Positions 167 through 17,951 of a DNA stretch of 32,000 bases are shown one piece after another. The notes below the pieces were generated by a model. That model was not told the origin of the DNA. It ran no database searches and was given only the letters and a program-made list of their open reading frames with translations. This DNA comes from Pirellula staleyi DSM 6068 (lineage in GTDB: Bacteria > Planctomycetota > Planctomycetia > Pirellulales > Pirellulaceae). The position numbers and the translations under genes were made by a program. Every line of letters starts with the position of its first letter. The stretch's first letter is position 1. The stretch spans positions 5,940,001-5,972,000 of the forward strand of contig CP001848.1 of NCBI GenBank assembly GCA_000025185.1, in the 5' to 3' direction.

Positions 167-1645
167 CTACGTCAGGATCTCTTTCACCACATGTCCCTCA
201 ACATCGGTGAGGCGGAAATCGCGACCCTGGAACCGATAGGTCAGCTGCTCGTGATTCACTCCCATGAGGTGCAAAATCGTGGCATTCAGGTCGTGAATAT
301 GGACCGGCTTGTCGACGACGTTGTAGCTGAAGTCGTCGGTCTCACCATGCACCACGCCCGGTTTCACACCAGCTCCTGCCATCCACATGGTGAAGCAGCG
401 GGGATGGTGATCGCGACCATGATTTTCCTTGGTGAGGGTCCCTTGGCTGTAGACCGTACGGCCAAACTCGCCACCCCAAACGACAAGCGTATCTTCGAGC
501 ATGCCACGTTGCTTTAGATCCTTCAGCAAACCGGCGGCAGGCTGATCCATGCTCTTGCACAGAAGTGGAATCTGCTTCGGCAAGTTGTTGTGATGATCCC
601 AGCCTCGCAAAAAGACCTGGGTGAAACGGACACCACGTTCGGCCAAGCGACGTGCGAGCAAACAGTTGTACGCAAAGGTTCCAGGCTCTTTTACTTCCGG
701 GCCATACAGATCGAGCGTTTCCTGCGTCTCTTTCGAGACATCGACGAGTTCCGGAACCGACGACTGCATGCGATACGCCATCTCGTACTGCGCGATGCGC
801 GACGTGATTTCGGGATCCCCTACCGCTTCGTACTTCTGCTGATTGAGCTCAGCCAAACCATCGAGCATCTTGCGGCGAGTTTCTTTCGAAACACCACCTG
901 GATTCGACAGATAAAGGACCGGATCGCCACTACTACGTAGCGCCACACCTTGATGCTTGGTCGGCAAAAAGCCCGATCCCCACAAGCGTGAGAAGAGGGC
1001 TTGGGATGAGGAACCAGGCGCTAGTTTCGAGTGCAGCACGACATACGCTGGCAGGTCTTGGTTTTCACTTCCGAGACCATAACTACTCCAGGCACCCATG
1101 CTCGGCCGACCTGGAATTTGACTCCCCGTTTGGATGTAGGTGATCGCTGGATCGTGGTTGATCGCCTCAGTGTTCATCGTCTTGATGATGGCGATATCGT
1201 CGACCACTTCACCCAGTTTGGGAAGGAGTTCACTGAGCCAGGTTCCGTTCTTGCCGTGCTGAGCAAACTTGAAGGTCGACGGCGCCACAGGCAACCGGGA
1301 TTGCCCCGACGTCATCGTCGTGATGCGTTGTCCTTGACGAATCGATTCGGGCAAATCCTTATCGAAAAAATCAGCCAGTTTCGGCTTATAGTCAAACAAG
1401 TCGAGCTGTGAAGGAGCATCGGCCATGAAAAGCCAAATGACCCGTTTTGCTTTCGGCGCGTGATGCAGCGACTTGAGTGCGCCAAGTGAAACGAGTTCAT
1501 TGGCCGCAGCTACTTTCGCGGCGTCGTCGGCCTGCGAATCGTGTGCAAGGAGCGAGGCTAGCGCTGCGGTCCCGAGACCGTGAGCCATCTTTCCAAAGAA
1601 GTAGCGGCGTGTGTGAGCAGCGAGCAAATCGTCGAACATAGACAT
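167..1645 (-). CDS. DUF1501 family protein (sulfatase/alkaline-phosphatase-like fold, Tat-type signal)
   Basis: 492-aa ORF. The N-terminus [24 protein letters not shown] resembles a twin-arginine signal. The body carries motifs typical of planctomycete DUF1501 proteins ([24 protein letters not shown]). It lies directly downstream of a PSCyt/DUF1549/DUF1553 gene, its usual partner. Confidence 0.85.
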
Positions 1646-1658
1646 AAAATATTCTCCA

Positions 1659-1699
1659 CAAGTGCTTGAACTATTTCTTCAAATTCCTTCAAGCACTTG
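1659..1699 (-). promoter_or_regulatory. Intercistronic stem-loop (12-bp perfect inverted repeat) between the PSCyt/DUF1553 and DUF1501 genes
   Basis: caagtgcttgaa (1659-1670) and ttcaagcacttg (1688-1699) are exact reverse complements, separated by a 17-nt loop. On the minus-strand mRNA the 3' arm ends just before tGGAGaatattttATG, the putative SD and start of the DUF1501 gene. No U-tract follows, so it is not called a terminator. Confidence 0.4.
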
Positions 1700-1721
1700 G
1701 CGATGATTCTGGAAGAGTGAT

Positions 1722-4700
1722 TTATTCCTTCGTCACGACTTCGTCGAGATTCAGGACCAGGTTGCTCACCATCGTCATCGCGGCGAGACTTGTGACATCG
1801 AGGCTAGCGTCGCGCGGGCTCGCGCCAGTGGCAATCAGTTTTTCAGCAGCCGGTTTGTCGGCGGTGTAGTCGGCCAAGTGGGCCTCGTACATTCGGAGCA
1901 AAACTGCTTGCTCGGCTTCGGTAGGAACTCGCCCGGTCGCGATGCGGAAGGCAAACTTCAGCTGATCGGCGGCTGCAGTTCCCCCTTCTTTCATCGAGCG
2001 TTCGGCCAATTTGCGAGCCGCTTCGACATACTGCTCGTCGTTCATCAGCACGAGGGCTTGCAGCGGCGTGTTGGTGCGAGCCCGACGCACCACACACGCT
2101 TCGCGCGATGGTGCATCAAACGTGGTCAGCGAGGCCGGGGGTGCAGTCCGTTTCCAGAACGTGTAGATGCTGCGGCGAAAGAGGGCTGTCCCTTCATCGC
2201 GTTTGTAGTTCTGCGTGTTGCTCCCTTGGAAAGCGACAGCTTCCCAAATGCCACCTGGTTGATAAGGTCGAACACCACGACCTCCACGTTCTTCGACGAG
2301 CAAACCGCTGGCGAAGAGCGCTGCGTCGCGAATCGCCTCGGCATCGAGACGGAAACGTGGACCACGCGAAAGCCATTCATTGGCAGGATCTTTTGCCAGC
2401 AGATCGGCGGTGATTTTCGACGACTGCTGATAAGCGGTCGACATCACCATCAGCTTCATCATGTGCTTCGTGTTCCAGCCACTTTCGATATACTCGCGAG
2501 CGAGCCAGTCGAGCAGTTCGGGATGTGTGGGGGATTGCCCTTGAGCACCAAAATCTTCTGAGGTTTTTACGATCCCCGCACCAAACAGGTTTTGCCAGTA
2601 GCGGTTGACGGCGACGCGAGCGGTGAGGGGATGATTGGGGTCGACCAGCCACTTGGCGAGCCCGAGGCGATTCTTGGGAAGCGACTCGGCCATCGGAGGA
2701 AGTGCGCCGGGAGTTCCCGCATCGACCTTATCGCCCTTCTTATCGTAAGCCCCTCGGATGAGCACGAATGTTTCGCGCGGCTTTTCCATTTCAGCCATCA
2801 CCAGCGAGGTGGGAATGGCCCCTTCGACTTTAGTCTTTTCAGCCTTCAACTCTTCCGTACGCTTCACAAAGGCCTGTAGTTTTTCCTTCGAGCTTTTGTG
2901 AATGTTCTCGAGGAAGTATTCACGAATTTTGGCTTTGTCGTCGTCGGTTTGCTTGTCGGCCTCTTTTGCAATTAGATCTTTGATCGGCTTAGGAATCGAC
3001 GATTTTGCCTGCGATTTCTCGTAGCTTTGCCAGGCAGCGAGGGACTCGAAACTTCGGCCGAGTTGGGGAGTGCGTGTGACGATGCCAGCAGTATCCCAGT
3101 AGACTGTGCCACCATTCTGAGTGAAGGCCCAGCCGTTGAGCGCGGCCCCAGGAGCGAGCCCAACTTTGGCCGCTTCGACTTCGAGTCGCACCCATTCGCC
3201 CGTTTTGGGAAGGGGTCCCATCTCGATGCGTGATGCGGTTCCGGCAGCACCCCAATCGATCGAGTTATCGCCCCAGTAGCAGCGATGCTCCCAGTTGCCA
3301 TCGTTGAACTGCAGCATCACTTCCTTGGGAGGATTCGTAGGGTCGAGATAGACGTAGGCAAACAGTTTGTCTCCCTCGCCGATCGAGAGTGTGGCCGTGG
3401 CGCCGGTGAAGAAGTGCTGGCTCAGTCCGTCAGCCTTACGCGTCGTCGCTTTCGCACCGCTATGCACCGGGCCTTCTTTCTCGGTGATGAACTGCCATGG
3501 GGTGTTGCCTTGCAACTGCGCACCGGCAGGCGCTTCGTCGTCGATCCAGACGAAGTCTTTCGGTTCGCTGGTGTTCCCATCGGCGGTTTCACCAGGGTCG
3601 ACATACTCGAGGGAAGCGAGCGTTGTTTTGCGCTCGTTCTCGGTAGTTTTCAGCTGCTCGTCGAGTTCAGCAAGTTTCTTTTGCTGATCGTCCGAGGCAA
3701 GTTTCATGATCGGCGGTGGCGAGAGGGCGTTGCCATCCATCGCGTTTTCAGCCACGCCGCTGAAGAATGCAAACAGGCTGTAAAAATCTTTTTGCGTCAG
3801 TGGATCGAACTTGTGATCGTGACAAACGGCGCACCCCATCGTGAGCCCCATGAAGACAGTGCTCGTGGTTTCGACGCGATCGACGCCGTAGCGCACCAGC
3901 ACTTCGTCGTTGATCGAGCCACCTTCACTGGTGCTCACGTTGCAGCGATTAAAGCCGGTGGCGACCTTCTGTTCGGGGGTCGCATTCTCAAGTAAATCAC
4001 CTGCGAGCTGCTCGATCGTGAATTGATCGAATGGCTGATTTTTGTTGTACGAAGCAATTACCCAGTCGCGATAAGGCCAGAGCGAACGTTCGTTGTCGAA
4101 GTGCAGCCCGTGCGTGTCGCCGTAGCGAGCAGCGTCGAGCCAGTAGCGGGCCATGTGCTCGCCATAGCGGGGCGAGAGAAGAAGTCGGTCGACCACTTTC
4201 TCATACGCTTCGGGACTTGTGTCAGCGAGGAACGCATCGACTTCCGCCATCGTTGGTGGAAGACCGGTAAGGTCGAGCGTCACGCGTCGCAGCAGCGTCA
4301 CGCGATCGGCTGGCTCGACGAACGTCATGCCGCGTTCTTCGAGTTTTGCAAGCAGAAACTGGTCGATCGGGCCGCGGGCTTTCGCGGCATCACGGACGGA
4401 CGGTGGTGCGGTGCGCTGAGGCGGAACAAAACTCCAGTGAGGCTGATACTCGGCCCCTTCGCTAATCCAGCGCCGGAGGAGTTCCTTTTGCTCAGCGGTC
4501 AGTTTCTTGCCCGATTCGGGGGGCGGCATCTGTACCGACGGATCGTCGCTCAAGATGCGCGCGATAAGCTCGCTCGCTTCAGGCTTGCCGGGCTCGATTG
4601 CTTTGGCGCCCGATTCGAGGGCTGCTGTGGCCCCTTCGAACTGGTCGAGACGAAGTCCAGCAGCACGCTGTTTTTCGTCGAAGCCGTGACACTTAAAGCA

Positions 4701-4868
4701 ATTGTCGGAAAGGATTAAGCGAATGTCGCGACCGAAGTCGAGATGCTTTCCTCCCGGCGCAGTTGCTGCGGGTGCGGGCTCGTCGGCTAGCGACCAAGAG
4801 CAGAACAAGAGGGCTGTTGCCGACGCGAAAACCATTCGCGCAGCACGCCACCAAGACGCGTGGAGCAT
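1722..4868 (-). CDS. Planctomycete cytochrome-c domain / DUF1549 / DUF1553 (PSCyt-PSD) protein, secreted
   Basis: 1048-aa ORF with a signal peptide (MLHASWWRAARMVFASATALLFCSWSLA). It has a CxxCH haem-c motif (NCFKCHG) and a DUF1549-like block (LLLSPRYGEHMARYWLDAARYGDTHG). It also has a second Cys/His motif (GCAVCHDHKFDP) and a DUF1553-like C-terminal block (VNRYWQNLFGAGIVKTSEDFGAQGQSPTHPELLDWLA). Confidence 0.85.
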   Translation of the reverse strand: MLHASWWRAARMVFASATALLFCSWSLADEPAPAATAPGGKHLDFGRDIRLILSDNCFKCHGFDEKQRAAGLRLDQFEGATAALESGAKAIEPGKPEASELIARILSDDPSVQMPPPESGKKLTAEQKELLRRWISEGAEYQPHWSFVPPQRTAPPSVRDAAKARGPIDQFLLAKLEERGMTFVEPADRVTLLRRVTLDLTGLPPTMAEVDAFLADTSPEAYEKVVDRLLLSPRYGEHMARYWLDAARYGDTHGLHFDNERSLWPYRDWVIASYNKNQPFDQFTIEQLAGDLLENATPEQKVATGFNRCNVSTSEGGSINDEVLVRYGVDRVETTSTVFMGLTMGCAVCHDHKFDPLTQKDFYSLFAFFSGVAENAMDGNALSPPPIMKLASDDQQKKLAELDEQLKTTENERKTTLASLEYVDPGETADGNTSEPKDFVWIDDEAPAGAQLQGNTPWQFITEKEGPVHSGAKATTRKADGLSQHFFTGATATLSIGEGDKLFAYVYLDPTNPPKEVMLQFNDGNWEHRCYWGDNSIDWGAAGTASRIEMGPLPKTGEWVRLEVEAAKVGLAPGAALNGWAFTQNGGTVYWDTAGIVTRTPQLGRSFESLAAWQSYEKSQAKSSIPKPIKDLIAKEADKQTDDDKAKIREYFLENIHKSSKEKLQAFVKRTEELKAEKTKVEGAIPTSLVMAEMEKPRETFVLIRGAYDKKGDKVDAGTPGALPPMAESLPKNRLGLAKWLVDPNHPLTARVAVNRYWQNLFGAGIVKTSEDFGAQGQSPTHPELLDWLAREYIESGWNTKHMMKLMVMSTAYQQSSKITADLLAKDPANEWLSRGPRFRLDAEAIRDAALFASGLLVEERGGRGVRPYQPGGIWEAVAFQGSNTQNYKRDEGTALFRRSIYTFWKRTAPPASLTTFDAPSREACVVRRARTNTPLQALVLMNDEQYVEAARKLAERSMKEGGTAAADQLKFAFRIATGRVPTEAEQAVLLRMYEAHLADYTADKPAAEKLIATGASPRDASLDVTSLAAMTMVSNLVLNLDEVVTKE

Positions 4869-5272: not shown

Positions 5273-7252
5273 TTAGCGACGCACAAGTTCATCTCCAGGC
5301 TCTTGCTGGTAGATATAGTCGGTCAAACCAGCCAGCAGCCAATCGTTGCCACTTCCGCTAAACAGACAATCGACGGCCGAATCGCCCACCACGCTGAAGT
5401 CGCCACCGAGGTCCCCTTGGTCCCAGATTTGCGCCCGGGTGGCGGCATCGGTGTTCCACTGGGCAAGCAACCCCAGGAGTGAAGCACCAACCGCAGCACT
5501 TTGCAGATCGCCACCAATCAGCAGGTCGTCGTCGGCCTGACCGTTGAGTCGATCAGGTCCCTGGCCACCGATTAGGATGTCGTTACCCAGTCCACCATTG
5601 ATCGTGTCAGTTCCGGCTCCACCCTGCACCAAGTCGGCCCCACCACGAGCTTCAATCTGGTCGTCCCCGTTGCCACCAACGATCCAGTCCGACGAAGCAC
5701 CACCGTAGATTCGGTCGCTCCCCTCACCTCCGTCGATGTAGCTCGGTGCAATAGCGCCGTGCAGTTCGTCGTGGCCATTACCGCCATAGATTTCGACACT
5801 CAAATTCAGCATGCAGGTGCCGACAAAATCATCGCCCCCCAGAGCGTGAATCACAGCCGAGTTCACCGTGCCGGCTGCGAAGCTGAAGTATTGCCCGTTG
5901 CGATAAACCATCACGCTCCCAGCCTGAGCACCGGGATAGACATACAAATAGTCGGCCCCTTCTGTCCCTTGCACAATCAGCACGCCATCCACCACAGCGA
6001 CGGGACTTGCCGGTAGCGTCAGATTGGAAGGTCCCGGTGGAAGTGGCATCGGAGGAGGTGGCGGAGTTTCATCGACGTCGAGAACGGCAATCTCGATACT
6101 GGCCTCCGAACTGAGTTCGCCATCACTCACGGCCACAACCAGCGTGTGGAGTGCATCGGCTTCGAAATCGAGGTTGGTGCTGGAAGCGATCCGAATCTCG
6201 CCCGTCGCTGCGTCGATCGAGAAAATGCCGGACTCGTTGCCACTCACGATCGAGTAAGTGAGCAGATCTTCGGGGTCAACATCGCTGCCGCTTACCTGCA
6301 CGACGAGCGTTGCGATTGCGGAATTCTCTTCAATGGACATTGAGCCATCTGCTATCGTCGGCGCATGGTTGGTGGGTGGAGGAGGATCGATCGGTCCACC
6401 CTCGTCGTCCCCCTCAGCATCTGCGAGCAGATGCGATGCAATCACCTGACCAAACATTGCGGCCGAGTCGTAGTTCTCGGCGGTGATAATTTTTCCATCG
6501 ACCCACACGTCATCGGCCGCGGTATCAGGATCGCCAATCGCGCCAGAGGAACCTTGCGTGATAGCGCCGTTGAAGTCCATCTGCGCTTGCTGCGAGAGTT
6601 CGAAGTAACCGTAATACTGCCCCTGATAGAAGGTGGCTGGCGAACCGATGTAAGGAATGGCAACAGTCCGGCCTGCGAGCAGGCTCACGCCATCGACACG
6701 CGCCCAAGCCAGCACGGTCGTGCCGTGGCAAATGGCCGTGACATACTTGTCCTGCTCCACGAAATCGTTGATCAGTTCATTCACCACTCCCTTCGTCGCC
6801 AGATCGCCGTTGTAGCGACCATCGCTATAAGTTCCTGGGAAGGCATACTGGTACATCGACGAACCCCAGCCCCCCACGAAGACGATGGCCGAATAGTCGG
6901 ACGCATTAACATCCGCTAGTGCAAGGTCGGGAGTAAGAAGACCACCATCGGCTCCTTCACCCGTGTTGACGTGCGGAACTGTTGGGTTCGTAGTAGTTGC
7001 GGCGACTTGCACATCGAGCCCTGCAGCTTCGATCGACATGCGTGTATCGCCGTACTCTTGGTAGTAGAAGTCGCTTTGATCAGCGACCACCATCAGCACC
7101 GGCAAGATATCACTGGCCATCATCGCGCGTGATTCGAGCGACTCAAGACGCAACCTACCTCGTCGATTTTTCGATCGTGAGTGTGATCGACTTGAAGACT
7201 CGCCAGTGCTGCGGCGAAGTGCTTCGCCGAGCCATTTCCAAAGATGTTTCAT
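5273..7252 (-). CDS. Secreted multidomain protein: DJ-1/PfpI-like (class-I glutamine-amidotransferase fold) + cadherin-like repeat + RTX (hemolysin-type) calcium-binding repeats
   Basis: I place the start at ATG 7252 (MKHLWKWLGE...), not at the ORF-track start 7459. The DJ-1/PfpI-like block spans nt 6422-7108 and has the nucleophile-elbow motif YVTAICHGTTVLA. The cadherin-like block reads NHAPTIADGSMSIEENS...VSGSDVDPEDLLTYSIVSGN...FSIDAATGEIRIA...LDFE...HTLVVAVSDG. C-terminal GGxGxD nonapeptides follow (GGNGHDELHG, GGEGSDRIYGG, GGNGDDQIEARGGADLVQGGAGTDTINGGLGNDILIGGQGPDRLNG). Confidence 0.8.
   Translation of the reverse strand: MKHLWKWLGEALRRSTGESSSRSHSRSKNRRGRLRLESLESRAMMASDILPVLMVVADQSDFYYQEYGDTRMSIEAAGLDVQVAATTTNPTVPHVNTGEGADGGLLTPDLALADVNASDYSAIVFVGGWGSSMYQYAFPGTYSDGRYNGDLATKGVVNELINDFVEQDKYVTAICHGTTVLAWARVDGVSLLAGRTVAIPYIGSPATFYQGQYYGYFELSQQAQMDFNGAITQGSSGAIGDPDTAADDVWVDGKIITAENYDSAAMFGQVIASHLLADAEGDDEGGPIDPPPPTNHAPTIADGSMSIEENSAIATLVVQVSGSDVDPEDLLTYSIVSGNESGIFSIDAATGEIRIASSTNLDFEADALHTLVVAVSDGELSSEASIEIAVLDVDETPPPPPMPLPPGPSNLTLPASPVAVVDGVLIVQGTEGADYLYVYPGAQAGSVMVYRNGQYFSFAAGTVNSAVIHALGGDDFVGTCMLNLSVEIYGGNGHDELHGAIAPSYIDGGEGSDRIYGGASSDWIVGGNGDDQIEARGGADLVQGGAGTDTINGGLGNDILIGGQGPDRLNGQADDDLLIGGDLQSAAVGASLLGLLAQWNTDAATRAQIWDQGDLGGDFSVVGDSAVDCLFSGSGNDWLLAGLTDYIYQQEPGDELVRR
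5501..5839 (-). repeat. Coding tandem RTX GGxGxD nonapeptide repeat block within the 5273-7252 CDS
   Basis: About 113 codons run from GGDDFVG to LIGGDLQ and contain at least eight Gly/Asp-rich nonapeptide units. One further unit (GSGNDWLLAG) lies downstream of the block. Confidence 0.7.
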
Positions 7253-7424
7253 AGCCCGTTCCTTCTCTCTGTTCCGGTAGATAAGAGTCCGCGAAGAAGC
7301 AGCCACAGAGTTGCTTGTCGGACAGAGAAAGAATGGCAATTCGCGCCGCGACCTTTCAGCAAGAGGGAAACAATTTGCGGGGTTTAATGCCAGCAACGGT
7401 CCTGAGGCAAGCAAGAAATAAAGA

Positions 7425-7456
7425 AAGACTTCTCTGCAGAGTCGCAAAGAAGTCTT
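7425..7456 (-). terminator. Probable intrinsic terminator after the Ser/Thr kinase gene
   Basis: aagacttct (7425-7433) and agaagtctt (7448-7456) form a 9-bp perfect stem with a 14-nt loop. On the minus strand it is followed by TCTTTATTTCTT. It lies about 90 nt downstream of the kinase stop (7547) and upstream of the RTX gene start (7252). Confidence 0.5.
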
Positions 7457-7546
7457 CAAATTAACCTCAATATATTGTGAGTTATTACAACACTATTTCC
7501 ATCGAATTAGCACCGACTTATTCATGTTTTATTCACAAATTACTGA

Positions 7547-9730
7547 CTATTTTTGACGTGCCGCAAGATAGCCAGCGAGTCGTTTGCCAAGTTCGGCGGC
7601 GGCCTTATCGTCGCGGGCTGTCAGGATCGAGCCATCGACTTTCACAGCCAGGTCGTGATCGAAATTGGCACCACAGGCGTTGTACTTGGGATCTTGTGCC
7701 GCGATTGGACTGTGAGCCACCGTGCGGCCTTCGAGCCAGCCGTGATATGCCAGTACACGCTGACCACCACAGATTCCGACAAGCGGCTTGCTCTCGCGAT
7801 TCATCTTCTCGAGCAGCCCTTTCACCAGTTTTGCATCGGCACCATCGCACATGCTGGCGACGTTGAATCCCGCCACCACGATCGCTCCATAATTCGTAGT
7901 ATCGACATCTTTCAGCACCAGATCGATATCGACAGCCGAGCCTTCACTCCCTTCCAGGAGTTCAGCCTGCCCCGCTGCTGTCGAGGCGACGGTGACGGTA
8001 TAGCCCTCTTTTCGCAGTTGATCAGCCAGCGGTCCAAAGTCGCCATACCAAAGTCCACGACGTGGCAAAACGACCAAGATATTTTTGCTGACGGCGGCTG
8101 CAGGCGAAGTTGAAGCTGACGCTGGTTCGGTGTTTTCGGAGGCGAATTTCTGGGCAGCGATCGATCCTGGCGAGTTGTCGCCAGCCGCTTGTGTTTCCGA
8201 AGAAATACTTGCTGCAGGAGCGGCAGACGTCTCTTCCGTGCCTGAATTTGAGGCTGCCGTTGGTGATGCGGTGGGGATGCCTTCCGAAGTGCTGGATGGC
8301 GGCGATTCAGCCTGCGTGGCTTGCTGATGCGCGGCCTCTTGCTCGGTCATCCCTTGCACGATCGGTGTCGGCTGGGGGCGTTCGACCACATCCACGGTGT
8401 AAGCAAACATCCCCAAGCCTGCGACAGCGACGATCCCCAGCAGTAACACTCCTCCGATCACTGCGGCTGCAATGGCAAGGATCATGCCAGTTCCCGTGGA
8501 CTCTCGCTCTTGAGTGGCATGCATCGGAAGTTCCTTCGAAACGATCGGCGCGAAATTGGCAAACTCGCTGGCGGCGGGTTGTTCGGGAATGGTGGTTTTG
8601 CTCACGGAAGGCTCCGTTTTTTGTTTCACATGCGGGGCTAGAGCCGCGACCAACTCCGAGGGAGTTTGGAATCGATCGGCAGGATTCTTCGCGAGTAGCT
8701 TCCCCATGATCTGCGCGAGCTCAACGCTCACGTCGTTGCGCTTGGTGCTCACCGCCACAACTTCACGCGAGAGATGTCCCGACAACTTGTCGACGACACT
8801 TCCGCCCGCAAAGGGTGGTTCGCCTGTGAGGAGGAAATAGAGCGTGCAACCGAGGGCGTAGAGGTCGCTCCGCACATCGGCGGCGCGCGCATCGGTGACT
8901 TGCTCGGGCGCGATATAGTCGGGAGTGCCGAGCACCATGCCCGCTCGTGTTGCGCCGGGCGCTAGATTTTTTTCGTGAGTCGGATCGTGCGCCGCCGATT
9001 CATCGCCAACTGACGTCGCGAGACGAGCCAAACCGAAGTCCAGTATCTTCAGCTGACCTTTCTTCGTGACCATCAAGTTCTGAGGCTTGATGTCGCGATG
9101 CACCATACCATGCGAATGCGCGTGTGAGAGACCGGTGGCTGCCTGACGAATCAGCTGCGCAGCCTCGTGAGGTGCCAGCGGACCACGTTTCTTCACCAGT
9201 CGATCGAGGCTGATTCCGTCGACATATTCCATCACCAAGAAGTGGAGTCCGTCGGCTTCTTCAGCGTCGTAGGCGGCGACAATATTGGGGTGGGAAAGCT
9301 TGGCTGCGGCGCGGACTTCACGTTCAAAGCGTTCGACCAGCGCTTTGCTGGCAATGAAGTTTTGACGAATCACTTTCAGCGCCACGGTGCGCTGCATCAT
9401 GCGATGCTCGGCTTTGTAGACAGCTCCCATCCCTCCCGTTCCGAGCCCCCCTGTCACTTCATAGCGTGGATGCTGCAGTAGTTGCACAGGCACCGTATCG
9501 CTTTTTGGCTCGGTGGCGGTTTGTTCGGTCGGCATGTGCATGCCGAGGGTCTGTTTTTGGGCATCGCGAGCGAGCTGAATCAGCGTGTCGTCGGGGACTG
9601 ATTCGAGGAGCCTGCCACACGCCTCACACTCGGCGAGATGCGACTCGATGACTGCAGCTTCCGCTGGTTCGAGTCGTCCTTGGCCGAACTGCACCAATCG
9701 CTCGATGCTCGGATGTTGGGAGACGATCAT
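7547..9730 (-). CDS. Membrane Ser/Thr protein kinase with N-terminal zinc-finger anti-sigma-like motif and C-terminal extracytoplasmic DJ-1/PfpI-like domain
   Basis: 727-aa ORF. The N-terminus carries H-x3-C-x2-C (HLAECEAC, nt 9617-9640), as in zf-HC2 anti-sigma factors. All Hanks kinase motifs are intact: GTGGMGAVYKA, VALKV, HRDIKPQNLMV, DFGLA, YIAPE. There is one TM helix (GMILAIAAAVIGGVLLLGIVAVAGLGMFAY) and an S/T/A/P-rich linker. The C-terminal block ILVVLPRRG...YGAIVVAG...PLVGICGGQRVLA...VDGSILTA has a DJ-1/PfpI-type nucleophile elbow. Confidence 0.85.
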   Translation of the reverse strand: MIVSQHPSIERLVQFGQGRLEPAEAAVIESHLAECEACGRLLESVPDDTLIQLARDAQKQTLGMHMPTEQTATEPKSDTVPVQLLQHPRYEVTGGLGTGGMGAVYKAEHRMMQRTVALKVIRQNFIASKALVERFEREVRAAAKLSHPNIVAAYDAEEADGLHFLVMEYVDGISLDRLVKKRGPLAPHEAAQLIRQAATGLSHAHSHGMVHRDIKPQNLMVTKKGQLKILDFGLARLATSVGDESAAHDPTHEKNLAPGATRAGMVLGTPDYIAPEQVTDARAADVRSDLYALGCTLYFLLTGEPPFAGGSVVDKLSGHLSREVVAVSTKRNDVSVELAQIMGKLLAKNPADRFQTPSELVAALAPHVKQKTEPSVSKTTIPEQPAASEFANFAPIVSKELPMHATQERESTGTGMILAIAAAVIGGVLLLGIVAVAGLGMFAYTVDVVERPQPTPIVQGMTEQEAAHQQATQAESPPSSTSEGIPTASPTAASNSGTEETSAAPAASISSETQAAGDNSPGSIAAQKFASENTEPASASTSPAAAVSKNILVVLPRRGLWYGDFGPLADQLRKEGYTVTVASTAAGQAELLEGSEGSAVDIDLVLKDVDTTNYGAIVVAGFNVASMCDGADAKLVKGLLEKMNRESKPLVGICGGQRVLAYHGWLEGRTVAHSPIAAQDPKYNACGANFDHDLAVKVDGSILTARDDKAAAELGKRLAGYLAARQK

Positions 9731-9873
9731 GGCAGGAACTCACAAAAACGACGGTCGAAGTTCAGGCAAATAGTGCTGCAGTAGGAAAGCTGAAAAAGGT
9801 GAAAAGTGCGATGCGGCACCGTGAGTTGGCAGGCCTCTTCCAGAGAGAAGATGCCCCGCGTCGCTCTGATCTT

Positions 9874-10476
9874 TCACAACTCTTCTGAATTTTCTTCTAC
9901 GAGGCCCTTCGCCTCTTGCCGTAAACGACTAAGCACACGGGACTTAGCTATAAAAACCGCATTGGTAGAAATTTGCAGGTCCTGAGCCACTTCCGAAGCT
10001 GAACGCCCAAGCAAAGCGACCTCGGTGAAGGCGCGCCAGGTGGTCGGCTCGAATTCTTTTTCAAGCTGCGCAAGGAGTTGCCGGGTGATATAGCGATCGT
10101 GCTCGAGGTCGAAGGCCTGACTCAGCTCGCTGCTGGGATCTTCGAGATCGGCCAAAAACTGCTGAAAATCGCTCGCGCCGGTCGCCATGGGGCGGGCTTT
10201 GCGCGAACGCCAGTGGTCGCGCAGAACGTTCACCGTGATGGTGCGGAGCCATGTTCGAAAGGCACCAATTCGCTGATTATGCTCGAAATCTTTCAGCCGA
10301 CGCACGACCACCGCCAGCACATCCTGCACTAGATCGTCGGCATCGTGCGACAACACTTCCTGGCGGCGCAAGTAGTTACGAATCAGTGGGCTATAGAGCT
10401 GCACCATTCGCTCCCACTCAGCCGAGTCGGGATCGGTGCGCAAGCGATCGAGCAAGCTGGCTGAAGTTTCTGCCAT
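9874..10476 (-). CDS. ECF-type RNA polymerase sigma-70 family factor
   Basis: 200-aa ORF. Region-2-like block: DADDLVQDVLAVVVRRLKDFE...FRTWLRTITVNVLRDHWR. Region-4 HTH block: SASEVAQDLQISTNAVFIAKSRVLSRLRQE. AGGAG lies 7 nt upstream of the ATG. It sits directly upstream of, and co-directional with, the kinase gene. Confidence 0.85.
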   Translation of the reverse strand: MAETSASLLDRLRTDPDSAEWERMVQLYSPLIRNYLRRQEVLSHDADDLVQDVLAVVVRRLKDFEHNQRIGAFRTWLRTITVNVLRDHWRSRKARPMATGASDFQQFLADLEDPSSELSQAFDLEHDRYITRQLLAQLEKEFEPTTWRAFTEVALLGRSASEVAQDLQISTNAVFIAKSRVLSRLRQEAKGLVEENSEEL

Positions 10477-10511
10477 CGGGTGCTCCTGATGTTGGGCGTC
10501 CGAGTCGCCAC

Positions 10512-10666
10512 GGGCTAGGAAAACAGCAAATCGCGGTCGACCGCAGCAGCCAAGTTGCCTTGGAGAATCCCCGCTATCGTTGGGCTAGGAACGATCGTAG
10601 CAGTTATTCCGCAAAAATTCCCCCCGCGTGCGGCTTGTGGTCTCATTCTGCCACCAAGTGCGGCTT
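10512..10666. promoter_or_regulatory. Divergent sigma / response-regulator control region with repeated motifs
   Basis: GGGCTAGGAA occurs at 10512-10521 and again at 10582-10591. A perfect 12-bp palindrome, GCGGTCGACCGC, lies at 10533-10544. GTGCGGCTT occurs at 10628-10636 and 10658-10666. All lie in the 227-bp gap between the divergent starts at 10476 and 10704. Their function is inferred only. Confidence 0.35.
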
Positions 10667-10703
10667 AGTACTAACCTACTCTTTCGCAAGGGGCAGGACT
10701 TTT

Positions 10704-11393
10704 ATGATCGACAATAAACCTCGCGTACTCGTGGTCGACGACGACGTTGCCATCATGCAGTGCGTCGGCGCATTCCTCGAGCATCATGAACAGATGGACG
10801 TGGTTGGCTATGCCAGTCATGCCCAAGCTGGCATTGCAGCAGCGGCGGCGCTGAAGCCCGACGTCGTGCTGCTCGACATCCACATGCATGGCCACGACGC
10901 CTTTTGGGCGTGTCGGCAGATTGTGGACCAATCGCATGGCAGTGCCAAAGTGTTGTTCTACACAGGTTTTCCGCGCGATCAGTACCTCGATCGTTGCATC
11001 GCCGCCGGTGCTTCTGGCATGGTGAGTAAGCATAGCGAGTCGATTCATAACGTGGGCATTGCCATGCGTTATGTCTTGCAGGGGAATACCTACTTTTCTC
11101 CCGAACTGGCCAAACGACTCATTGAAAGCGAGTCGCAAGCACCTCAGTCTCGCCTGGCAACTCTCACCCATCGCGAAATCGAAGTGCTCCGGCAATTGTC
11201 GGAAGGACGATCGAATCGCGAGATCGCGCAGTCGCTCGATATCAGTTTGCGGAGCGTCGAAAAAGAGGTCTCGGACCTGAAAGAAAAGGTTCAGATGTCG
11301 ACGATTAACGAACTACTGATGTTTGCCGCGAACGAAGGTTTGATCTATCCCGAGCTGATGCACACTCGGAGCCAGGCACTGCAGGCCAACTAG
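10704..11393 (+). CDS. NarL/FixJ (LuxR-type HTH) two-component response regulator
   Basis: Start placed at ATG 10704 (MIDNKPRVLVVDDD...). The part of the ORF-track frame upstream of it overlaps the sigma gene. Receiver motifs are present (VVDDD, VLLDIHMHGHD, YTGF, VSKH). The C-terminal LuxR HTH reads LTHREIEVLRQLSEGRSNREIAQSLDISLRSVEKEVSDL. No cognate histidine kinase is in the window. Confidence 0.85.
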   Translation: MIDNKPRVLVVDDDVAIMQCVGAFLEHHEQMDVVGYASHAQAGIAAAAALKPDVVLLDIHMHGHDAFWACRQIVDQSHGSAKVLFYTGFPRDQYLDRCIAAGASGMVSKHSESIHNVGIAMRYVLQGNTYFSPELAKRLIESESQAPQSRLATLTHREIEVLRQLSEGRSNREIAQSLDISLRSVEKEVSDLKEKVQMSTINELLMFAANEGLIYPELMHTRSQALQAN

Positions 11394-13597: not shown

Positions 13598-14644
13598 ATG
13601 TCGACCACGCTCATCGAATGTGAAACGTCCATCGCGCCGAGCGCTGTAAGCTCGGTGCCGGGGACTTCGCGCATGTTGCTGGCACTTGCTGTGGGACTGA
13701 TTCTCGTTTCGGCAACGCTTGCGGCCGCTTTGCCGATCGGTTTTTCGATCATCACCGTCTTTCTCTTTGCTGGGCCACACAACTGGCTCGAAGCACGGTA
13801 CATGCTCTCGCAGATGCCCGCCCGCTGGGGGAAGCTGCGAGTCTATTTTCTGACCGGGATTCTCGGCGCGATGCTCCTGACGGGCCTCGCCGCGTCGATG
13901 CCTCTGGTGGGCATTTCGCTCGATTTCTCGCCGCAGTCGTATAGCTACCTCATCGCCGCGTGGAACTCGCTGCTGCTGCTCTGGATCCTGACACTCTCGC
14001 AGCTGCGGGCGGCGCAAAACCCTCGTCGCAATTGGCAGGTAGCCTATCCCCTCACGTTCGCGTTAATTGCCGTTAACTGGCTCTATCCGACAACGATGGG
14101 AATGCTGCTGGTTTATCTCCATCCGCTAGTGGCCCTGGCCTTCCTCGATCGCGAACTCGCACGCCGCGATCGCCTCGAGCAGACCAACTTGCAAACACCG
14201 TATCGCCAAGCGCTACTGCTGTTGCCGCTTGCGATTTTTGGCATTGTCGTCGCACTCTGGAATCAGCCGAACTTGCCGGGAGACGATTTACTCTCGCAAG
14301 CGATCACACATCACGCGGGTGAATCGGCATTTGGCAACGTCTCGACGCACATGCTCGTTGCCTTGCACACGTTTCTCGAGATGCTGCACTACGGTGTGTG
14401 GGTCGTCGCGATTCCACTGCTTTCCATTCGACGCTGGCCATGGCAAATCGATACGGTTCCACTCACACGACGTTCACCGATTTGGCGACAAGCGATCCTC
14501 GGAGTCGTGGCGCTCGGTGCGATCGTGATGCTCGTACTGTGGGGTTCCTTCCTGGCCGACTATCCACTCACGCGCAATCTCTACTTCACCGTTGCGATGC
14601 TGCACGTGCTCGCCGAAGTTCCATTCCTTCTGCGACTTCTCTAA
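13598..14644 (+). CDS. Hypothetical polytopic membrane protein with intramembrane His/Glu motifs
   Basis: 348-aa ORF with about 8 or more hydrophobic segments. Recurrent His/Glu motifs: GPHNWLEARY, YLHPLVA, THHAGE, LHTFLEMLHYGVW, MLHVLAEVPF. No family assigned confidently. Confidence 0.65.
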   Translation: MSTTLIECETSIAPSAVSSVPGTSRMLLALAVGLILVSATLAAALPIGFSIITVFLFAGPHNWLEARYMLSQMPARWGKLRVYFLTGILGAMLLTGLAASMPLVGISLDFSPQSYSYLIAAWNSLLLLWILTLSQLRAAQNPRRNWQVAYPLTFALIAVNWLYPTTMGMLLVYLHPLVALAFLDRELARRDRLEQTNLQTPYRQALLLLPLAIFGIVVALWNQPNLPGDDLLSQAITHHAGESAFGNVSTHMLVALHTFLEMLHYGVWVVAIPLLSIRRWPWQIDTVPLTRRSPIWRQAILGVVALGAIVMLVLWGSFLADYPLTRNLYFTVAMLHVLAEVPFLLRLL

Positions 14645-15107: not shown

Positions 15108-17951
15108 CTAACTGCGAGGCTCGGGACGCCAGCGCCACATCCAAATTAATCGCCGCGCAACGGTGGGGAGCAGCAGATAGCCGATCATCAAGACCCAAAA
15201 GATTCGTGCCGGGGTTAGCATGGCAGGCATAAGATGCAGCGATGTCAGCAGCGCCGCAGCGGTCGGCATACCAACGACAAAGCGACGCTGGCGCGCAAGC
15301 CAGTCGATCACTGGGCTGGGATGTTTTTCTCGGCGTTTCGAGCGCGGCGCAAGCGCGAGCCACATAGCTCCCAGGGCTACGATCAGTAGTGCTAGGGCAA
15401 CTGGCAGAGGTATGCTTTTACGCAGCCCCCCGAGGAGCGCCGGCCAGCGCAGGTCGACTCCTCCATGCCCCAGTTTCAGTAGCAAGAGCATACCGATCGA
15501 CGCAGCAGCCAGCGCGAGCATGATGGCGTAGCTGTATTGAAAAAAGATCCGCTCACTCGTGGATTTCCACTCGCCTGTGCGATGCAGCATCGCGATTTTG
15601 ATCACAGCGGCGAATGCTGCGGCACAAGCAACGTTTTCAAGTATGGCCCACTCGCTCAACCGATAGCCAAACTGCCCCATCCGCAGCATCACCATATCTC
15701 CCATCGCCATCACCCGATCGAGAGCGATGATGGGAATCAGCAGCGTCAGGACTTGGCGATAGAGACCGCCGACTCCCAGAACTAAGGCCCAGCGCGCGTA
15801 GGCAGAATTATTCCGCGCCAGGATGTTCACTCCCCAGTAGTCGTGAAAACGCTTGCAGCGATGGAGCAACTGGCCACGCGCAGTGACCACGACTTCATTG
15901 ACACGAGGCAACCACGTGAGCAGACCGAGCGACGCGACAAACAGCACGCCGCCGAGCATCAGCCCACTTCCCCAGCGAGGTTCATAGGTCAGCCGCACTT
16001 CGGTCGTCCCGACTGGCATGTCGAACTGAATTCGCCCCAGAGGATCTTCTTTGCACAAAACTCGCACCCCATTGCAGCGCACTACGGAGCGTTTTAAGTA
16101 CAGAAAGTTCAGAGTCCCTTGCGAGGCTCGCGAAGCTGGCGCACATGTCGCCTCGAAGCTGCTGAGCTTCTGTCGACACGCGAACGCCTTGGAATCGAGT
16201 TCGGCTGTCCAGATCAGACCGCGAGGATCTTTTACCTCGATCACCCGCAGCATGCTGCGTGATGTGGGCTGCGGCGTTTGCTCGCGATGGAGCAGTTCGT
16301 CGAGAGTTCCCCAGTGATAGATCAGCACTGCAGCGACACCATACTCGCGGAGCATCCGATCATTCCGCAGGTTGGTGGCGATCCGCTGCGAGGCTGGCCA
16401 TGTGGAGACCAGTGGGTCATAACCATCGACCGAGGGAATCTGATAGTAGCTCGCGAAGTTGTGCCCCAGCGAAGTGGAGTAATCCTCGGCGGGATAGCGC
16501 GCTGGCATCTCTGGCTTTACACGCAGCAGCGATGGAGGTGGAAACATCGCGGCAATATCAGGTGCGAGCGCTGGGTAGTTGTTACCGCTGAACGTGCAAA
16601 ACGAAGGTTTGGGAAACGATGCATCGTGCAGCGTCAGGCCGATCGAGGCGAGGCTGAAAACGATCGCAACCAGATTCCACCAGCGACTTGCTCCAGCTAT
16701 GGACTGCAGCACCATCGCCCCCCACAGCAGTGTGAAAAAGGCAACAAATGGCAGGAATTTAATCGGATAGCTGAACTTCGACAGAATCGGCAACACTTGG
16801 TGGAGTCCCCAAAGTGGTGTCGCAGGTCCGAGCGCGAGTAGCAGAAAAACGACGAGCCCCCACCACACCGCCGAGTGGAGCAGTTTGCACTGGCTCCGGC
16901 GCACAACCACTTCGACCAGACTGGCAAGGGCGAGCCAAGCAAACACACCTCCGAAGAAATACATCGATCCGAAGTAGACACCTGCCTCTGTGGGTTCTCG
17001 CCCATCAACGTGCGAGGAAAACTGAAGTGGCATCGGCCACAAGATCGAGTTAAGCGCCTCGTATATGCCAGTCCCCAGTCCACCCTGGCGATTGATTCCC
17101 GAAGTCCCTTCGAGTTGCGTTAGCAGCAGTGGCGCGGCGATAGCAACTCCTAGGGTAAGCGCTACAATGCGACAGATCGTCAGCTTTACGGAACCTCGGT
17201 CCGCAGAGCATTCGCGTGCGTAGTCCAGCAAGGTGGCGCCAAGCACACCCAGCATGACGTAGAACCACATCTGCGCGTTGCCTGCATGGAACAGAGCGCC
17301 GAGCGAAACGCCGAGCAGGAGTGTTGCGAGTCGTTGGTACTTGGTGCTGGAGAGCCACGCGTAACAGCCAGCGGCAAGGGGCCCCCAGAGATAGAGCGGC
17401 GTCATGTAGTACCACGATCGCCCCGCGATGAGTGCATAGCCACTGAGCGCAAGCGAGACCCCGAGCGCGACGCGCAGCCAGGGATGCAGCCCAACCCGCG
17501 CGCCGCACCACCACATCGCCAAGTACCCACCCAGCAAATGGCCGATGCAAAAAATCTCGATGGTATACCGCTCATCTCCCAGGCATTTGGCTAGTGCGTA
17601 AGACGCGTAGGTGGGGGGATAAGTGAGAGCATAGGTCCCACGGTCAGCGAGCGGAGCGCCGAGGAATTGATACGGGTTCCAGTCCGGAAATTCTCCCGCC
17701 TCGAGGCAGCGACAGCCGTGCAGCATCGCAGGAAAGAACTGCGTGTAGTTATCGTCTTGCAAAAAAAACAGTGGCGAGTAATGCTCGATCCCCAGGAGCA
17801 TCGCCGCCACAACGATTAAGCCAACAGCGCACGAAAACAGGCCGCGACGATGATCGCGCTGCCAAGGCTCACTTGCTCCGGCATCGAGCCAGAGTGCTAG
17901 ACGTGCCAAACTCCCTTGAGCTTGGATTAGTACGTTTCGAAGCAATACCAC
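15108..17951 (-). CDS. Large polytopic membrane protein, putative GT-C-fold (YfhO-like) polyprenyl-phosphate-sugar-dependent glycosyltransferase
   Basis: 947-aa ORF with a GTG start 7 nt after the AraD-like stop. An N-terminal region of about 430 aa has many TM helices. A soluble domain of about 200 aa follows, then a second multi-TM region of about 300 aa. The architecture and its neighbours (GT2 and a GtrA-like module) suggest a GT-C enzyme. I did not recognise a diagnostic motif, so the function is inferred. Confidence 0.45.
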   Translation of the reverse strand: MVLLRNVLIQAQGSLARLALWLDAGASEPWQRDHRRGLFSCAVGLIVVAAMLLGIEHYSPLFFLQDDNYTQFFPAMLHGCRCLEAGEFPDWNPYQFLGAPLADRGTYALTYPPTYASYALAKCLGDERYTIEIFCIGHLLGGYLAMWWCGARVGLHPWLRVALGVSLALSGYALIAGRSWYYMTPLYLWGPLAAGCYAWLSSTKYQRLATLLLGVSLGALFHAGNAQMWFYVMLGVLGATLLDYARECSADRGSVKLTICRIVALTLGVAIAAPLLLTQLEGTSGINRQGGLGTGIYEALNSILWPMPLQFSSHVDGREPTEAGVYFGSMYFFGGVFAWLALASLVEVVVRRSQCKLLHSAVWWGLVVFLLLALGPATPLWGLHQVLPILSKFSYPIKFLPFVAFFTLLWGAMVLQSIAGASRWWNLVAIVFSLASIGLTLHDASFPKPSFCTFSGNNYPALAPDIAAMFPPPSLLRVKPEMPARYPAEDYSTSLGHNFASYYQIPSVDGYDPLVSTWPASQRIATNLRNDRMLREYGVAAVLIYHWGTLDELLHREQTPQPTSRSMLRVIEVKDPRGLIWTAELDSKAFACRQKLSSFEATCAPASRASQGTLNFLYLKRSVVRCNGVRVLCKEDPLGRIQFDMPVGTTEVRLTYEPRWGSGLMLGGVLFVASLGLLTWLPRVNEVVVTARGQLLHRCKRFHDYWGVNILARNNSAYARWALVLGVGGLYRQVLTLLIPIIALDRVMAMGDMVMLRMGQFGYRLSEWAILENVACAAAFAAVIKIAMLHRTGEWKSTSERIFFQYSYAIMLALAAASIGMLLLLKLGHGGVDLRWPALLGGLRKSIPLPVALALLIVALGAMWLALAPRSKRREKHPSPVIDWLARQRRFVVGMPTAAALLTSLHLMPAMLTPARIFWVLMIGYLLLPTVARRLIWMWRWRPEPRS

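Follow-up and report, generated by a model that had tools for sequence, protein, structure and literature searches.

Sigma factors of the extracytoplasmic function (ECF) type are frequently described as the third pillar of signalling in bacteria, and several of their groups, listed in the ECF reclassification as ECF43, ECF59-62, ECF217, ECF267 and ECF283, are associated with protein kinases. The mechanism of these kinase-associated groups is settled for ECF43 only. The ECF43 members EcfP and EcfK are the only mechanistically solved kinase-dependent ECFs; their acidic core-binding motif lacks its charge, which is gained by Thr phosphorylation, so that the phosphate stands in for the missing motif (PMC8999054, PMC13147305). 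The other kinase-linked groups keep a DAED-like motif and, according to a 2022 review, may work differently (PMC8999054). Groups of the ECF59/61/62/217 type are described as typically devoid of anti-sigma factors and are presumed to depend on direct sigma phosphorylation (PMC7826278). In Mycobacterium tuberculosis, the kinase PknB phosphorylates the zinc anti-sigma (ZAS) factors RshA and RseA and thereby frees SigH and SigE (PMC8999054, PMC13147305). Here we analyse a 32,000-nucleotide stretch of Pirellula staleyi DSM 6068 (contig CP001848.1, positions 5,940,001 to 5,972,000; hereafter the window, in whose own numbering all positions are given) that carries an ECF sigma factor gene and, just downstream of it, a gene for a 727-residue membrane protein in which an anti-sigma domain (ASD), a Hanks-type Ser/Thr kinase and a DJ-1/PfpI-fold domain appear to be joined. 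An ASD hidden at the N-terminus of such a kinase could explain how the kinase-linked, DAED-retaining sigmas of planctomycetes are held in check.

The sigma gene occupies positions 9874-10476 and the gene of the hybrid anti-sigma/kinase/DJ-1 protein positions 7547-9730, both on the minus strand, with the kinase gene 143 nt downstream of the sigma gene. Both positions were re-derived here and match those of the first-pass annotation, an initial reading of the window that had already paired the two genes. The 200-residue sigma protein matches Pfam Sigma70_r2 (E 1.5e-13) and, over residues 20-188, the sigma70-ECF family TIGR02937 (E 6e-18), and is by these matches a minimal ECF (group 4) sigma factor composed of sigma2 and sigma4 domains only. 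Its relatives in the PDB are CnrH, SigE and RpoE, the partner of ChrR. The family is tightly conserved, its best 120 homologs being 58-87% identical, and the homologs bearing names belong to Pirellulaceae, Anatilimnocola and Zavarzinella. Searches with the NCBIfam planctomycete sigma subfamilies TIGR02989 and TIGR02984 place the window sigma far under their cut-offs.

The N-terminus of the kinase protein (residues 1-62; 9545-9730, minus strand) is, as we judge with good but incomplete confidence from sequence profiles and a structural model, a sigma-binding class I zinc ASD. Its putative zinc ligands are H6, H31, C35 and C38, a pattern of HHCC type under the nomenclature of PMC11506125; the last three lie in the HLAECEAC motif, which was found, as first annotated, at residues 31-38 (9617-9640). 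Among 120 homologs, 117 hold the four putative ligands in a fixed span of 33 residues ([H/C]P-x24-HxxxCxxC), and of the remaining three, two come from gene calls that lack part of the N-terminus. The first ligand position is His in 116 of these 117 proteins and Cys, also a zinc ligand, in one; the His of the family's invariant 'HP' aligns with residue 6 of ChrR. Pfam zf-HC2 matches residues 18-38 of the full-length protein with 22.7 bits against a gathering cut-off of 22.2; the isolated N-terminal domain scores 27.5 bits, and 28 of 29 family members match. When a profile of the family N-termini was compared with all PDB sequences, essentially anti-sigma factors alone were matched, namely DdvA (4.5e-6), ChrR (1e-3), RslA (1e-3) and RsiW (0.2). 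An AlphaFold2 model of residues 1-62 is a bundle of four helices (7-14, 20-32, 34-42 and 47-60; mean pLDDT 76.5), in keeping with the three bundled helices and additional fourth one of class I ZAS domains, and each of its 15 PDB matches by Foldseek is an anti-sigma domain (ChrR, RsiW, RslA, DdvA), solved in complex with an ECF sigma or as the partner of one. The best match, ChrR, has a TMq of 0.63 and a root mean square deviation of 1.4 Å over 42 columns. The supposition of the first-pass annotation that this segment models as an anti-sigma domain was thus borne out. Because the full-length score lies so near the Pfam threshold, automated context surveys would miss the domain; of the 120 closest homologs, no more than about 20 have a precomputed zf-HC2 match.

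By profile matches, the fusion of ASD and kinase is widespread in Planctomycetota and not peculiar to the window genome. An ASD profile searched against 1.84 billion cluster representatives recovered 1,352 proteins at E <= 1e-10. From the best 150 of these matches, the 53 proteins of at least 378 residues that were new relative to an earlier search were scanned with Pfam, and 45 of them contain a single ASD. Every one of the 45 carries Pkinase, and this constancy of the fusion argues for functional coupling of ASD and kinase. The C-terminal domains of the same 45 proteins are more varied: DJ-1 in 33, WD40 propellers in five, PEGA with an FGE-sulfatase domain in one, and no recognised domain in the remainder. 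Among the best 120 full-length matches to the window protein, 119 combine Pkinase with DJ-1_PfpI. Judged from these architectures, ASD and kinase form a conserved core and the sensor position is swappable, DJ-1 being its commonest occupant. The searches also returned eight proteins of 380-540 residues (P0241, P0266, P0277, P0284, P0285, P0306, P0341 and P0356) with three to five tandem ASD-like H/C...HxxxCxxC modules, followed by a hydrophobic segment and without a kinase; several sigma-binding-like modules in series are unusual.

The same zinc site could be read as a cytoplasmic redox switch, sensing thiol oxidation as RsrA and in part RslA do, with the kinase and DJ-1 domains forming an independent fused unit. 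HxxxCxxC is the ZAS motif, and some ZAS proteins are reported to be redox sensitive (PMC3177212, PMC2877774); most homologs also have an extra Cys beside the motif (CxxCC). The window protein, however, reads CEACG and is without that Cys, zinc is structural in most ZAS domains, ChrR included, and the invariable kinase fusion speaks for coupling rather than independence. We therefore consider a redox switch of this kind quite improbable.

The pairing of sigma and kinase genes was then assessed in other loci, which came from six look-ups among kinase homologs with long contigs and from a metagenome profile scan, all analysed with phmmer. The metagenome scan used an N-terminal alignment that was seeded on the kinase motif; the ASD was present in about 14 of its 51 loci, and these entered the synteny count. 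A scan of genome contigs with a full-length alignment returned mostly unrelated kinases of many phyla (with HRDIKPxN and KILDFGLA motifs), L004 alone being useful. A locus was counted as informative if at least 700 nt were available upstream of the ASD-kinase gene, which left 15 loci. In 12 of these 15, an ortholog of the window sigma lies upstream on the same strand (phmmer E 1e-27 to 1e-77), in agreement with the co-conservation on which the first-pass annotation had staked its pairing. The distance between the two genes is usually 39-113 nt (a range over five loci) and reaches 0.65-2.1 kb in three loci; at least 16 further sigma and kinase matches share a contig, as taken from equal lengths of their longest contigs. 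The synteny persists between kinases that are only some 40% identical. In addition, the sigma and the kinase protein show congruent pairwise divergence in a mirror-tree comparison over 26 pairs, with a correlation coefficient (PCC) of 0.83-0.88 (ASD 0.83, kinase 0.85, DJ-1 0.88); a value of 0.82 has been reported for true ECF/ASD pairs and values of 0.5-0.6 for controls (PMC7406223). These sequence comparisons support a co-inherited cognate pair, and do so without being evidence of contact through the ASD in particular.

If an anti-sigma domain accompanies this sigma, the sigma should be one that needs restraint. Its region 2.2 carries the acidic core-binding motif DADDLVQD (residues 45-52; 10321-10344, minus strand), which contacts the beta' clamp. 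Across the 120 homologs, position 45 is acidic in 120 and position 47 in 117, D48 and Q51 are each present in 120, and position 52 is Glu or Asp in 107; the DxDDxxQE motif is intact in 120/120. Given this intact motif, the sigma should bind core RNA polymerase unaided and hence needs an inhibitor. The first-pass annotation had cited phosphorylation-dependent ECF activation as a precedent. That activation holds for the ECF43 pair EcfP/PknT, where it was demonstrated, and does not transfer to the window sigma: the ECF43 mechanism needs a sigma without the DAED motif, so that phosphorylation of the window sigma, if it occurs, would have to use a different site or serve a different purpose. An ECF43-type charge switch was accordingly rejected for this sigma, on the conservation of its acidic motif throughout the homologs.

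Such another site is conceivable in the linker between sigma2 and sigma4 (residues 102-119, SDFQQFLADLEDPSSELS; 10120-10173, minus strand), which is unusually conserved in the 120 homologs and contains S102, S116 and S119. Ser or Thr occupies position 102 in 104 homologs and position 119 in 118, and S116 is present in 120. By likeness to the linker sites of EcfK and SigH, these serines are possible phospho-acceptors (PMC13147305). The kinase might then activate the sigma directly by phosphorylating it, as PknT does EcfP and PknS does EcfK, and the zinc module would serve as a docking site and not as an inhibitor. Adjacency of a sigma and a Ser/Thr kinase (STK) gene is a hallmark of ECF43, ECF59-62 and ECF217 (PMC7826278), both EcfK and SigH are phosphorylated in the linker whose serines are kept here in 104-120 of 120 homologs, and in one ortholog (L099) a Glu stands at the S102 position. 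Against direct activation, the fully intact acidic motif means that the sigma is not intrinsically inactive as EcfP is, and an ASD fold sandwiching sigma2 and sigma4 acts as an inhibitor in all the solved structures that were matched (ChrR, RslA, RsiW, DdvA). As an explanation in its own right direct activation is unlikely, if by some distance the most credible of the alternatives considered here; it is also not exclusive of sequestration by the ASD and could operate beside it.

Downstream of the ASD, the Hanks-type Ser/Thr kinase domain spans residues 88-360 (8651-9469, minus strand), with a Pkinase match over residues 90-356 (E 3e-55). Its Gly-rich loop, VAIK Lys, alphaC Glu, HRD, DFG and APE motifs are all present, and the catalytic motifs are intact as first reported: K119, E138, H211-R212-D213, K215, N218, D231-F-G233, T261, P275-E276, D289 and R353 do not vary among 30 homologs. 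A single transmembrane (TM) segment follows at residues 416-446 (8393-8485, minus strand; Kyte-Doolittle maximum 2.83), and 105 of 120 homologs likewise have one hydrophobic segment, and no more, C-terminal of the kinase domain. Since both ASD and kinase have to lie on the cytoplasmic side and one TM helix comes after them, the C-terminal DJ-1 domain is predicted to be extracytoplasmic, the topology that the first-pass annotation had drawn. It would be reached through a low-complexity linker of 99 residues (447-545; 8096-8392, minus strand) that is rich in Ala (20%), Ser (17%), Pro (11%) and Thr (11%), and that is unalignable and length-variable among homologs.

The DJ-1/PfpI-fold domain itself comprises the last 182 residues (546-727; 7550-8095, minus strand). 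Pfam DJ-1_PfpI matches residues 564-717 (E 3.6e-16), and a family profile of the domain recovers Arabidopsis DJ-1D (AtDJ-1D, 1e-36), PH1704 (2e-20) and human DJ-1 (5e-17). The AlphaFold2 model, of flavodoxin-like fold, has a pLDDT of 98 and Foldseek TM-scores of 0.88 to 4hcj, 0.83 to Pseudomonas aeruginosa PfpI and 0.82 to DJ-1, so that HMM and structure agree on the fold proposed in the first-pass annotation. The GICGG motif (7763-7777) places Cys654 (codon 7769-7771) at the nucleophile elbow, aligned with the catalytic Cys, and Asp564 aligns with Glu18 of DJ-1 in a DJ-1beta alignment. In 122 DJ-1 domains from 119 homologs, the nucleophile Cys is kept in 115 and the Asp/Glu partner in 121. 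A conserved His was sought in the same 122 domains and found neither after the Cys, as in the PfpI type, nor at the position of DJ-1 His126: the residue after the Cys is Gly in the window protein, variable in the family and never His, and the His126-equivalent column is mostly Gly, Arg or Ala. By sequence, the domain therefore belongs to the DJ-1/PfpI superfamily and conserves a reactive pair of Cys and carboxylate, but is neither a PfpI-type protease nor a DJ-1 ortholog. PfpI-type protease activity was largely rejected for it, the His being absent. Given the Cys/Asp pair, it could nonetheless work as an enzyme and not purely as a sensor. In some family members the extracytoplasmic part comprises two DJ-1 domains in tandem (P0078 of locus L086, 856 residues; P0042, 879 residues; and P0094). 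In P0042 and P0078 a Gly replaces the nucleophile Cys in the first of these domains, and the Cys is kept in the second only; the second DJ-1 match of P0094 is a fragment (503-551) with a gap at the Cys column.

These C-terminal features also bear on regulated proteolysis as the route of release. A membrane anti-sigma factor would here be freed by site-1 and site-2 cleavage, with the DJ-1 domain providing a steric block or, as a Cys hydrolase capable of self-cleavage, cutting the linker, and with the kinase separate or modulatory in role. The best PDB match of the ASD is DdvA, in which a zinc anti-sigma domain (ZASD) is tied by a flexible linker to a periplasmic domain resembling Cys proteases, and linker-clipping self-cleavage has been proposed for its CHAT domain (PMC11506125). 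The window protein has its own flexible linker of 99 residues and a conserved nucleophile Cys, and PfpI relatives carry protease annotation. Several features speak against cleavage, however: the PfpI Cys-His pair lacks its His here, and no other His is conserved nearby; a kinase with a fully conserved active site, lying between ASD and TM segment, would be left without a role; an intramembrane cut would free an ASD-kinase fragment of about 45 kDa still bound to the sigma; and relatives replace DJ-1 by WD40 and other non-hydrolase domains. Proteolytic release is on this evidence improbable.

Taken with the domain identities, ligand conservation, topology, synteny and intact DAED-type motif established for the locus, we place at a little better than even a composite model in which a cis-fused anti-sigma/kinase sequesters the sigma and frees it by phosphorylation upon a periplasmic signal received by the DJ-1 domain; what is bound, what is phosphorylated, the signal and the regulon are the parts that we infer. 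The single-pass membrane protein would serve both as anti-sigma factor and as signalling kinase of the sigma encoded just upstream. At rest, as fold, motif and synteny suggest, the cytoplasmic HHCC ASD would bind sigma2 and sigma4 and so retain the sigma at the membrane and out of reach of RNA polymerase. The input would be received outside the cytoplasmic membrane by the DJ-1-fold domain on its flexible linker, either through binding of a small ligand or through modification of the Cys654/Asp564 pair by an oxidant or electrophile. This signal would turn on the Hanks kinase, probably via dimerisation and autophosphorylation, and the kinase would then phosphorylate the adjacent ASD, its linker or the serines of the sigma2-sigma4 linker, whereupon the complex would come apart and the sigma would be set free. 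The freed sigma would transcribe its regulon, perhaps including the neighbouring gene for a secreted DJ-1/cadherin/RTX protein. If true, the protein would provide a compact, modular sensor-kinase-anti-sigma part for synthetic circuits, and the first regulatory role of an extracytoplasmic DJ-1-fold domain.

A wider reading, offered more tentatively and short of an even chance in our estimate, is that the planctomycetal kinase-linked ECFs that keep the acidic motif are controlled not solely through phosphorylation of the sigma but by an unrecognised class of one-polypeptide ZAS/kinase proteins. Members of such a class would combine sequestration, cis phosphorylation of the ASD or of the sigma linker, and interchangeable extracytoplasmic sensors. 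The commonest of these, DJ-1, would report through its Cys on periplasmic oxidants or electrophiles, or on a ligand shared with a co-regulated secreted DJ-1/cadherin protein.

Several observations weigh against the composite model. The zf-HC2 match of the full-length protein lies just 0.5 bit over the cut-off, the Foldseek E-values of the 62-residue ASD are all greater than 1, and the confidence of its model is moderate. Non-significant Foldseek E-values are expected with a helical query of 62 residues, and the structural case for the ASD lies in the exclusivity of its modelled anti-sigma matches, not in their scores. A whole kinase domain stands between ASD and membrane, unlike in characterised membrane anti-sigma factors. 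The positive-inside rule is uninformative for the window protein, which has one Lys/Arg on each side of the TM segment; 70 of 105 homologs agree with the rule for the proposed topology. Nor does the mirror-tree comparison single out the ASD, for the kinase and DJ-1 domains correlate with the sigma equally well, and at three of the 15 informative loci (L086, L094 and L097) an ASD-kinase occurs without an adjacent sigma. Finally, the regions upstream of 11 orthologous sigma genes yielded no ECF-type promoter common to them, which leaves autoregulation and the regulon hypothetical. Bipartite motifs in these regions reached at most three of 11 sequences, equal to the shuffled null, and GGAATT, present in five of the 11, was not significant after multiple-testing correction, with -10 regions that disagree.

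The loci without a sigma and the non-significant Foldseek E-values would fit an account without any regulatory link, in which sigma and kinase are mere neighbours, the N-terminal motif is a generic zinc ribbon and the DJ-1 domain is a membrane-tethered periplasmic detoxifying enzyme. Synteny maintained across kinases only distantly alike, ASD matches confined to anti-sigma factors and the congruent divergence of sigma and kinase make this account very improbable, and we rank it last among those weighed.

The spacer between sigma and kinase genes (143 nt; 9731-9873, minus strand) is without an open reading frame (ORF), a terminator scan of the minus strand between the two genes called no terminator-like site, and the folding of the spacer is no better than that of shuffled versions (z 0.39). 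A structure resembling an intrinsic terminator, a hairpin with a U-rich tail (7412-7457, minus strand), closes the unit beyond the kinase gene, which is the arrangement noted in the first-pass annotation. The hairpin proper (7424-7457) begins about 90 nt past the end of the kinase gene and has a perfect 15-bp stem with a dG of -20.1 kcal/mol; its stability has a z of -4.8, and none of 200 shuffles was as stable. The two genes are probably co-transcribed. Directly after the sigma stop codon, the spacer RNA at 9800-9873 (minus strand) can be drawn as a branched stem rich in GC, with two U-rich runs behind it (ACUUUUCACCUUUUUCAGC); this element, not called by the terminator scan, could conceivably cause partial attenuation. 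The ORF list and a Pfam scan revealed no further anti-sigma gene at the locus.

Beyond the terminator lies the gene of the secreted protein mentioned above (5273-7252, minus strand), in which Pfam recognises, after an N-terminal planctomycete extracellular motif, a DJ-1/PfpI domain (AICHG) along with a cadherin domain and RTX repeats. Its DJ-1 domain has the Cys-His pair and is 27% identical to that of the kinase protein (E 1e-12), and both domains contain an aromatic-rich strand motif ('FYYQEYG / LWYGDFG'). The mechanical ORF start of this gene is a TTG at 7459, overlapping the terminator hairpin. The true start is almost certainly the internal ATG at 7252 (MKHLWKWLG...), and the hairpin is therefore intergenic. 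This start leaves an AT-richer intergenic region of 294 nt (GC about 0.52 in 7001-8000), in which the downstream promoter would lie. An ortholog of the secreted protein is encoded at 6000-9062 (plus strand) of locus L084 (43% identity over 392 residues, E 5e-85), directly downstream of a homologous sigma-kinase pair whose kinase is 42% identical to that of the window; in the other five loci examined no ortholog was present. The secreted protein may be a regulon member or a partner of the sigma-kinase pair.

On the other side of the pair, a divergently transcribed response regulator of NarL/FixJ type (Response_reg and GerE; 10251-11393, plus strand) has no histidine kinase nearby. Its listed ORF start overlaps the sigma gene, and the real start is probably an internal Met (MIDNKPRVLVVDD) at about 10704. 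The response regulator (about 10704-11393, plus strand) was rejected as a part of the system, not being conserved beside the pair in other loci. Further downstream on the strand of the pair, 167-4868 (minus strand) encodes a typical planctomycetal couple, a PSCyt1/PSCyt2/PSD1 protein of 1048 residues and a DUF1501 protein of 492 residues. In L085, the gene immediately upstream of the sigma is likewise of PSCyt2/PSD1 type, probably by coincidence, these genes being abundant. Three ORFs, 15108-17951 (minus strand, 947 residues), 13598-14644 (plus strand, 348 residues) and 18739-19713 (minus strand, 324 residues), have no Pfam match at E <= 1e-4. The gene content marks the window clearly as planctomycetal: it includes the Planc_extracel motif, PSCyt1/PSCyt2/PSD1 alongside DUF1501, and DUF1559 bearing a prepilin motif.

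How much of this arrangement is new can be judged against the literature. The first-pass annotation had held DJ-1/PfpI to be undescribed as an input of kinases or anti-sigma factors. That position has to be narrowed: the Pkinase-TM-DJ-1 architecture is common, and it is already listed in a supplementary table of 2024 (PMC11032199), in the covered part of whose text a zf-HC2 entry was not found. The kinase-TM-DJ-1 architecture is thus already known and common in Planctomycetota, and the ASD hidden on the kinase appears to be the new part. The DJ-1 fold as a sensor is likewise not unprecedented, given the ligand-sensing DJ-1/ThiJ-like domains of GATR regulators; what stands is that its extracytoplasmic use on a kinase or anti-sigma factor appears undescribed. 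A full-text search of the literature retrieved no description of a zf-HC2 or anti-sigma domain fused to a kinase, nor of DJ-1 on planctomycetal kinases, with Jogler 2012, Wiegand 2020, Iyer 2020 and the Casas-Pastor 2021 supplements lying outside the search, so that a prior mention there is possible.

Compared with known systems, the window protein shares its sensor fold with the GATRs GbdR, CdhR and CahR, AraC-type regulators in which a DJ-1/ThiJ/GATase1-like domain, often with its Cys kept, is the signal input of transcription control. The GATRs are cytoplasmic one-component regulators, whereas the DJ-1 domain of the window protein is predicted to be extracytoplasmic and to feed a kinase/anti-sigma factor. 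In gene context, though not by a group HMM, the pair resembles the planctomycetal STK-linked groups ECF59/61/62 and ECF217 in its planctomycete origin, in the order of an ECF gene followed by an STK gene and in the retained DAED-like motif. Jogler reportedly described ECFSTK1-4 in 2012, corresponding to ECF59/61/62. The window pair differs from these groups in that the kinase itself contains a putative anti-sigma domain. With the ECF43 pairs EcfP-PknT of Vibrio parahaemolyticus and EcfK-PknS of Xanthomonas citri, for which kinase-dependent sigma activation has been demonstrated, it shares a sigma gene beside that of a Hanks kinase that crosses the membrane once and has a periplasmic domain of variable kind. 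The ECF43 sigmas lack the acidic DAED motif and their kinases have not been reported to carry an ASD, whereas the window sigma keeps DxDDxxQE and the window kinase has a predicted ASD.

The class I ZAS/ZASD factors of the pairs ChrR-RpoE (Rhodobacter sphaeroides), RslA-SigL (M. tuberculosis), RsiW-SigW (Bacillus subtilis) and DdvA-DdvS (Myxococcus xanthus) have, like the window protein, an N-terminal helical bundle of about 60 residues with H/C...HxxxCxxC, and the HHCC ligand type of the window ASD is that of RslA. They are also alike in being encoded beside an ECF sigma as single-pass membrane proteins with an extracytoplasmic C-terminal domain. The likeness to DdvA extends to a periplasmic domain of Cys-hydrolase fold on a flexible linker (PMC11506125). 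These four ZAS factors have no kinase, whereas the window protein has an intact Hanks kinase of about 270 residues between ASD and TM segment, and release of its sigma is therefore probably not, or not solely, by proteolysis or zinc oxidation. In the PknB circuits of M. tuberculosis, a transmembrane Hanks kinase with an extracytoplasmic sensor likewise controls ECF sigmas, there via phosphorylation of ZAS-type anti-sigma factors. Kinase and anti-sigma factor are separate proteins in those circuits, encoded apart, and the kinase has many substrates and a PASTA sensor; the window protein unites both functions in one polypeptide with a DJ-1 sensor and, as proposed, one dedicated sigma. By this analogy, the action of PknB on RshA/SigH and RseA/SigE is the closest working precedent, of which the window system would be a cis-fused version.

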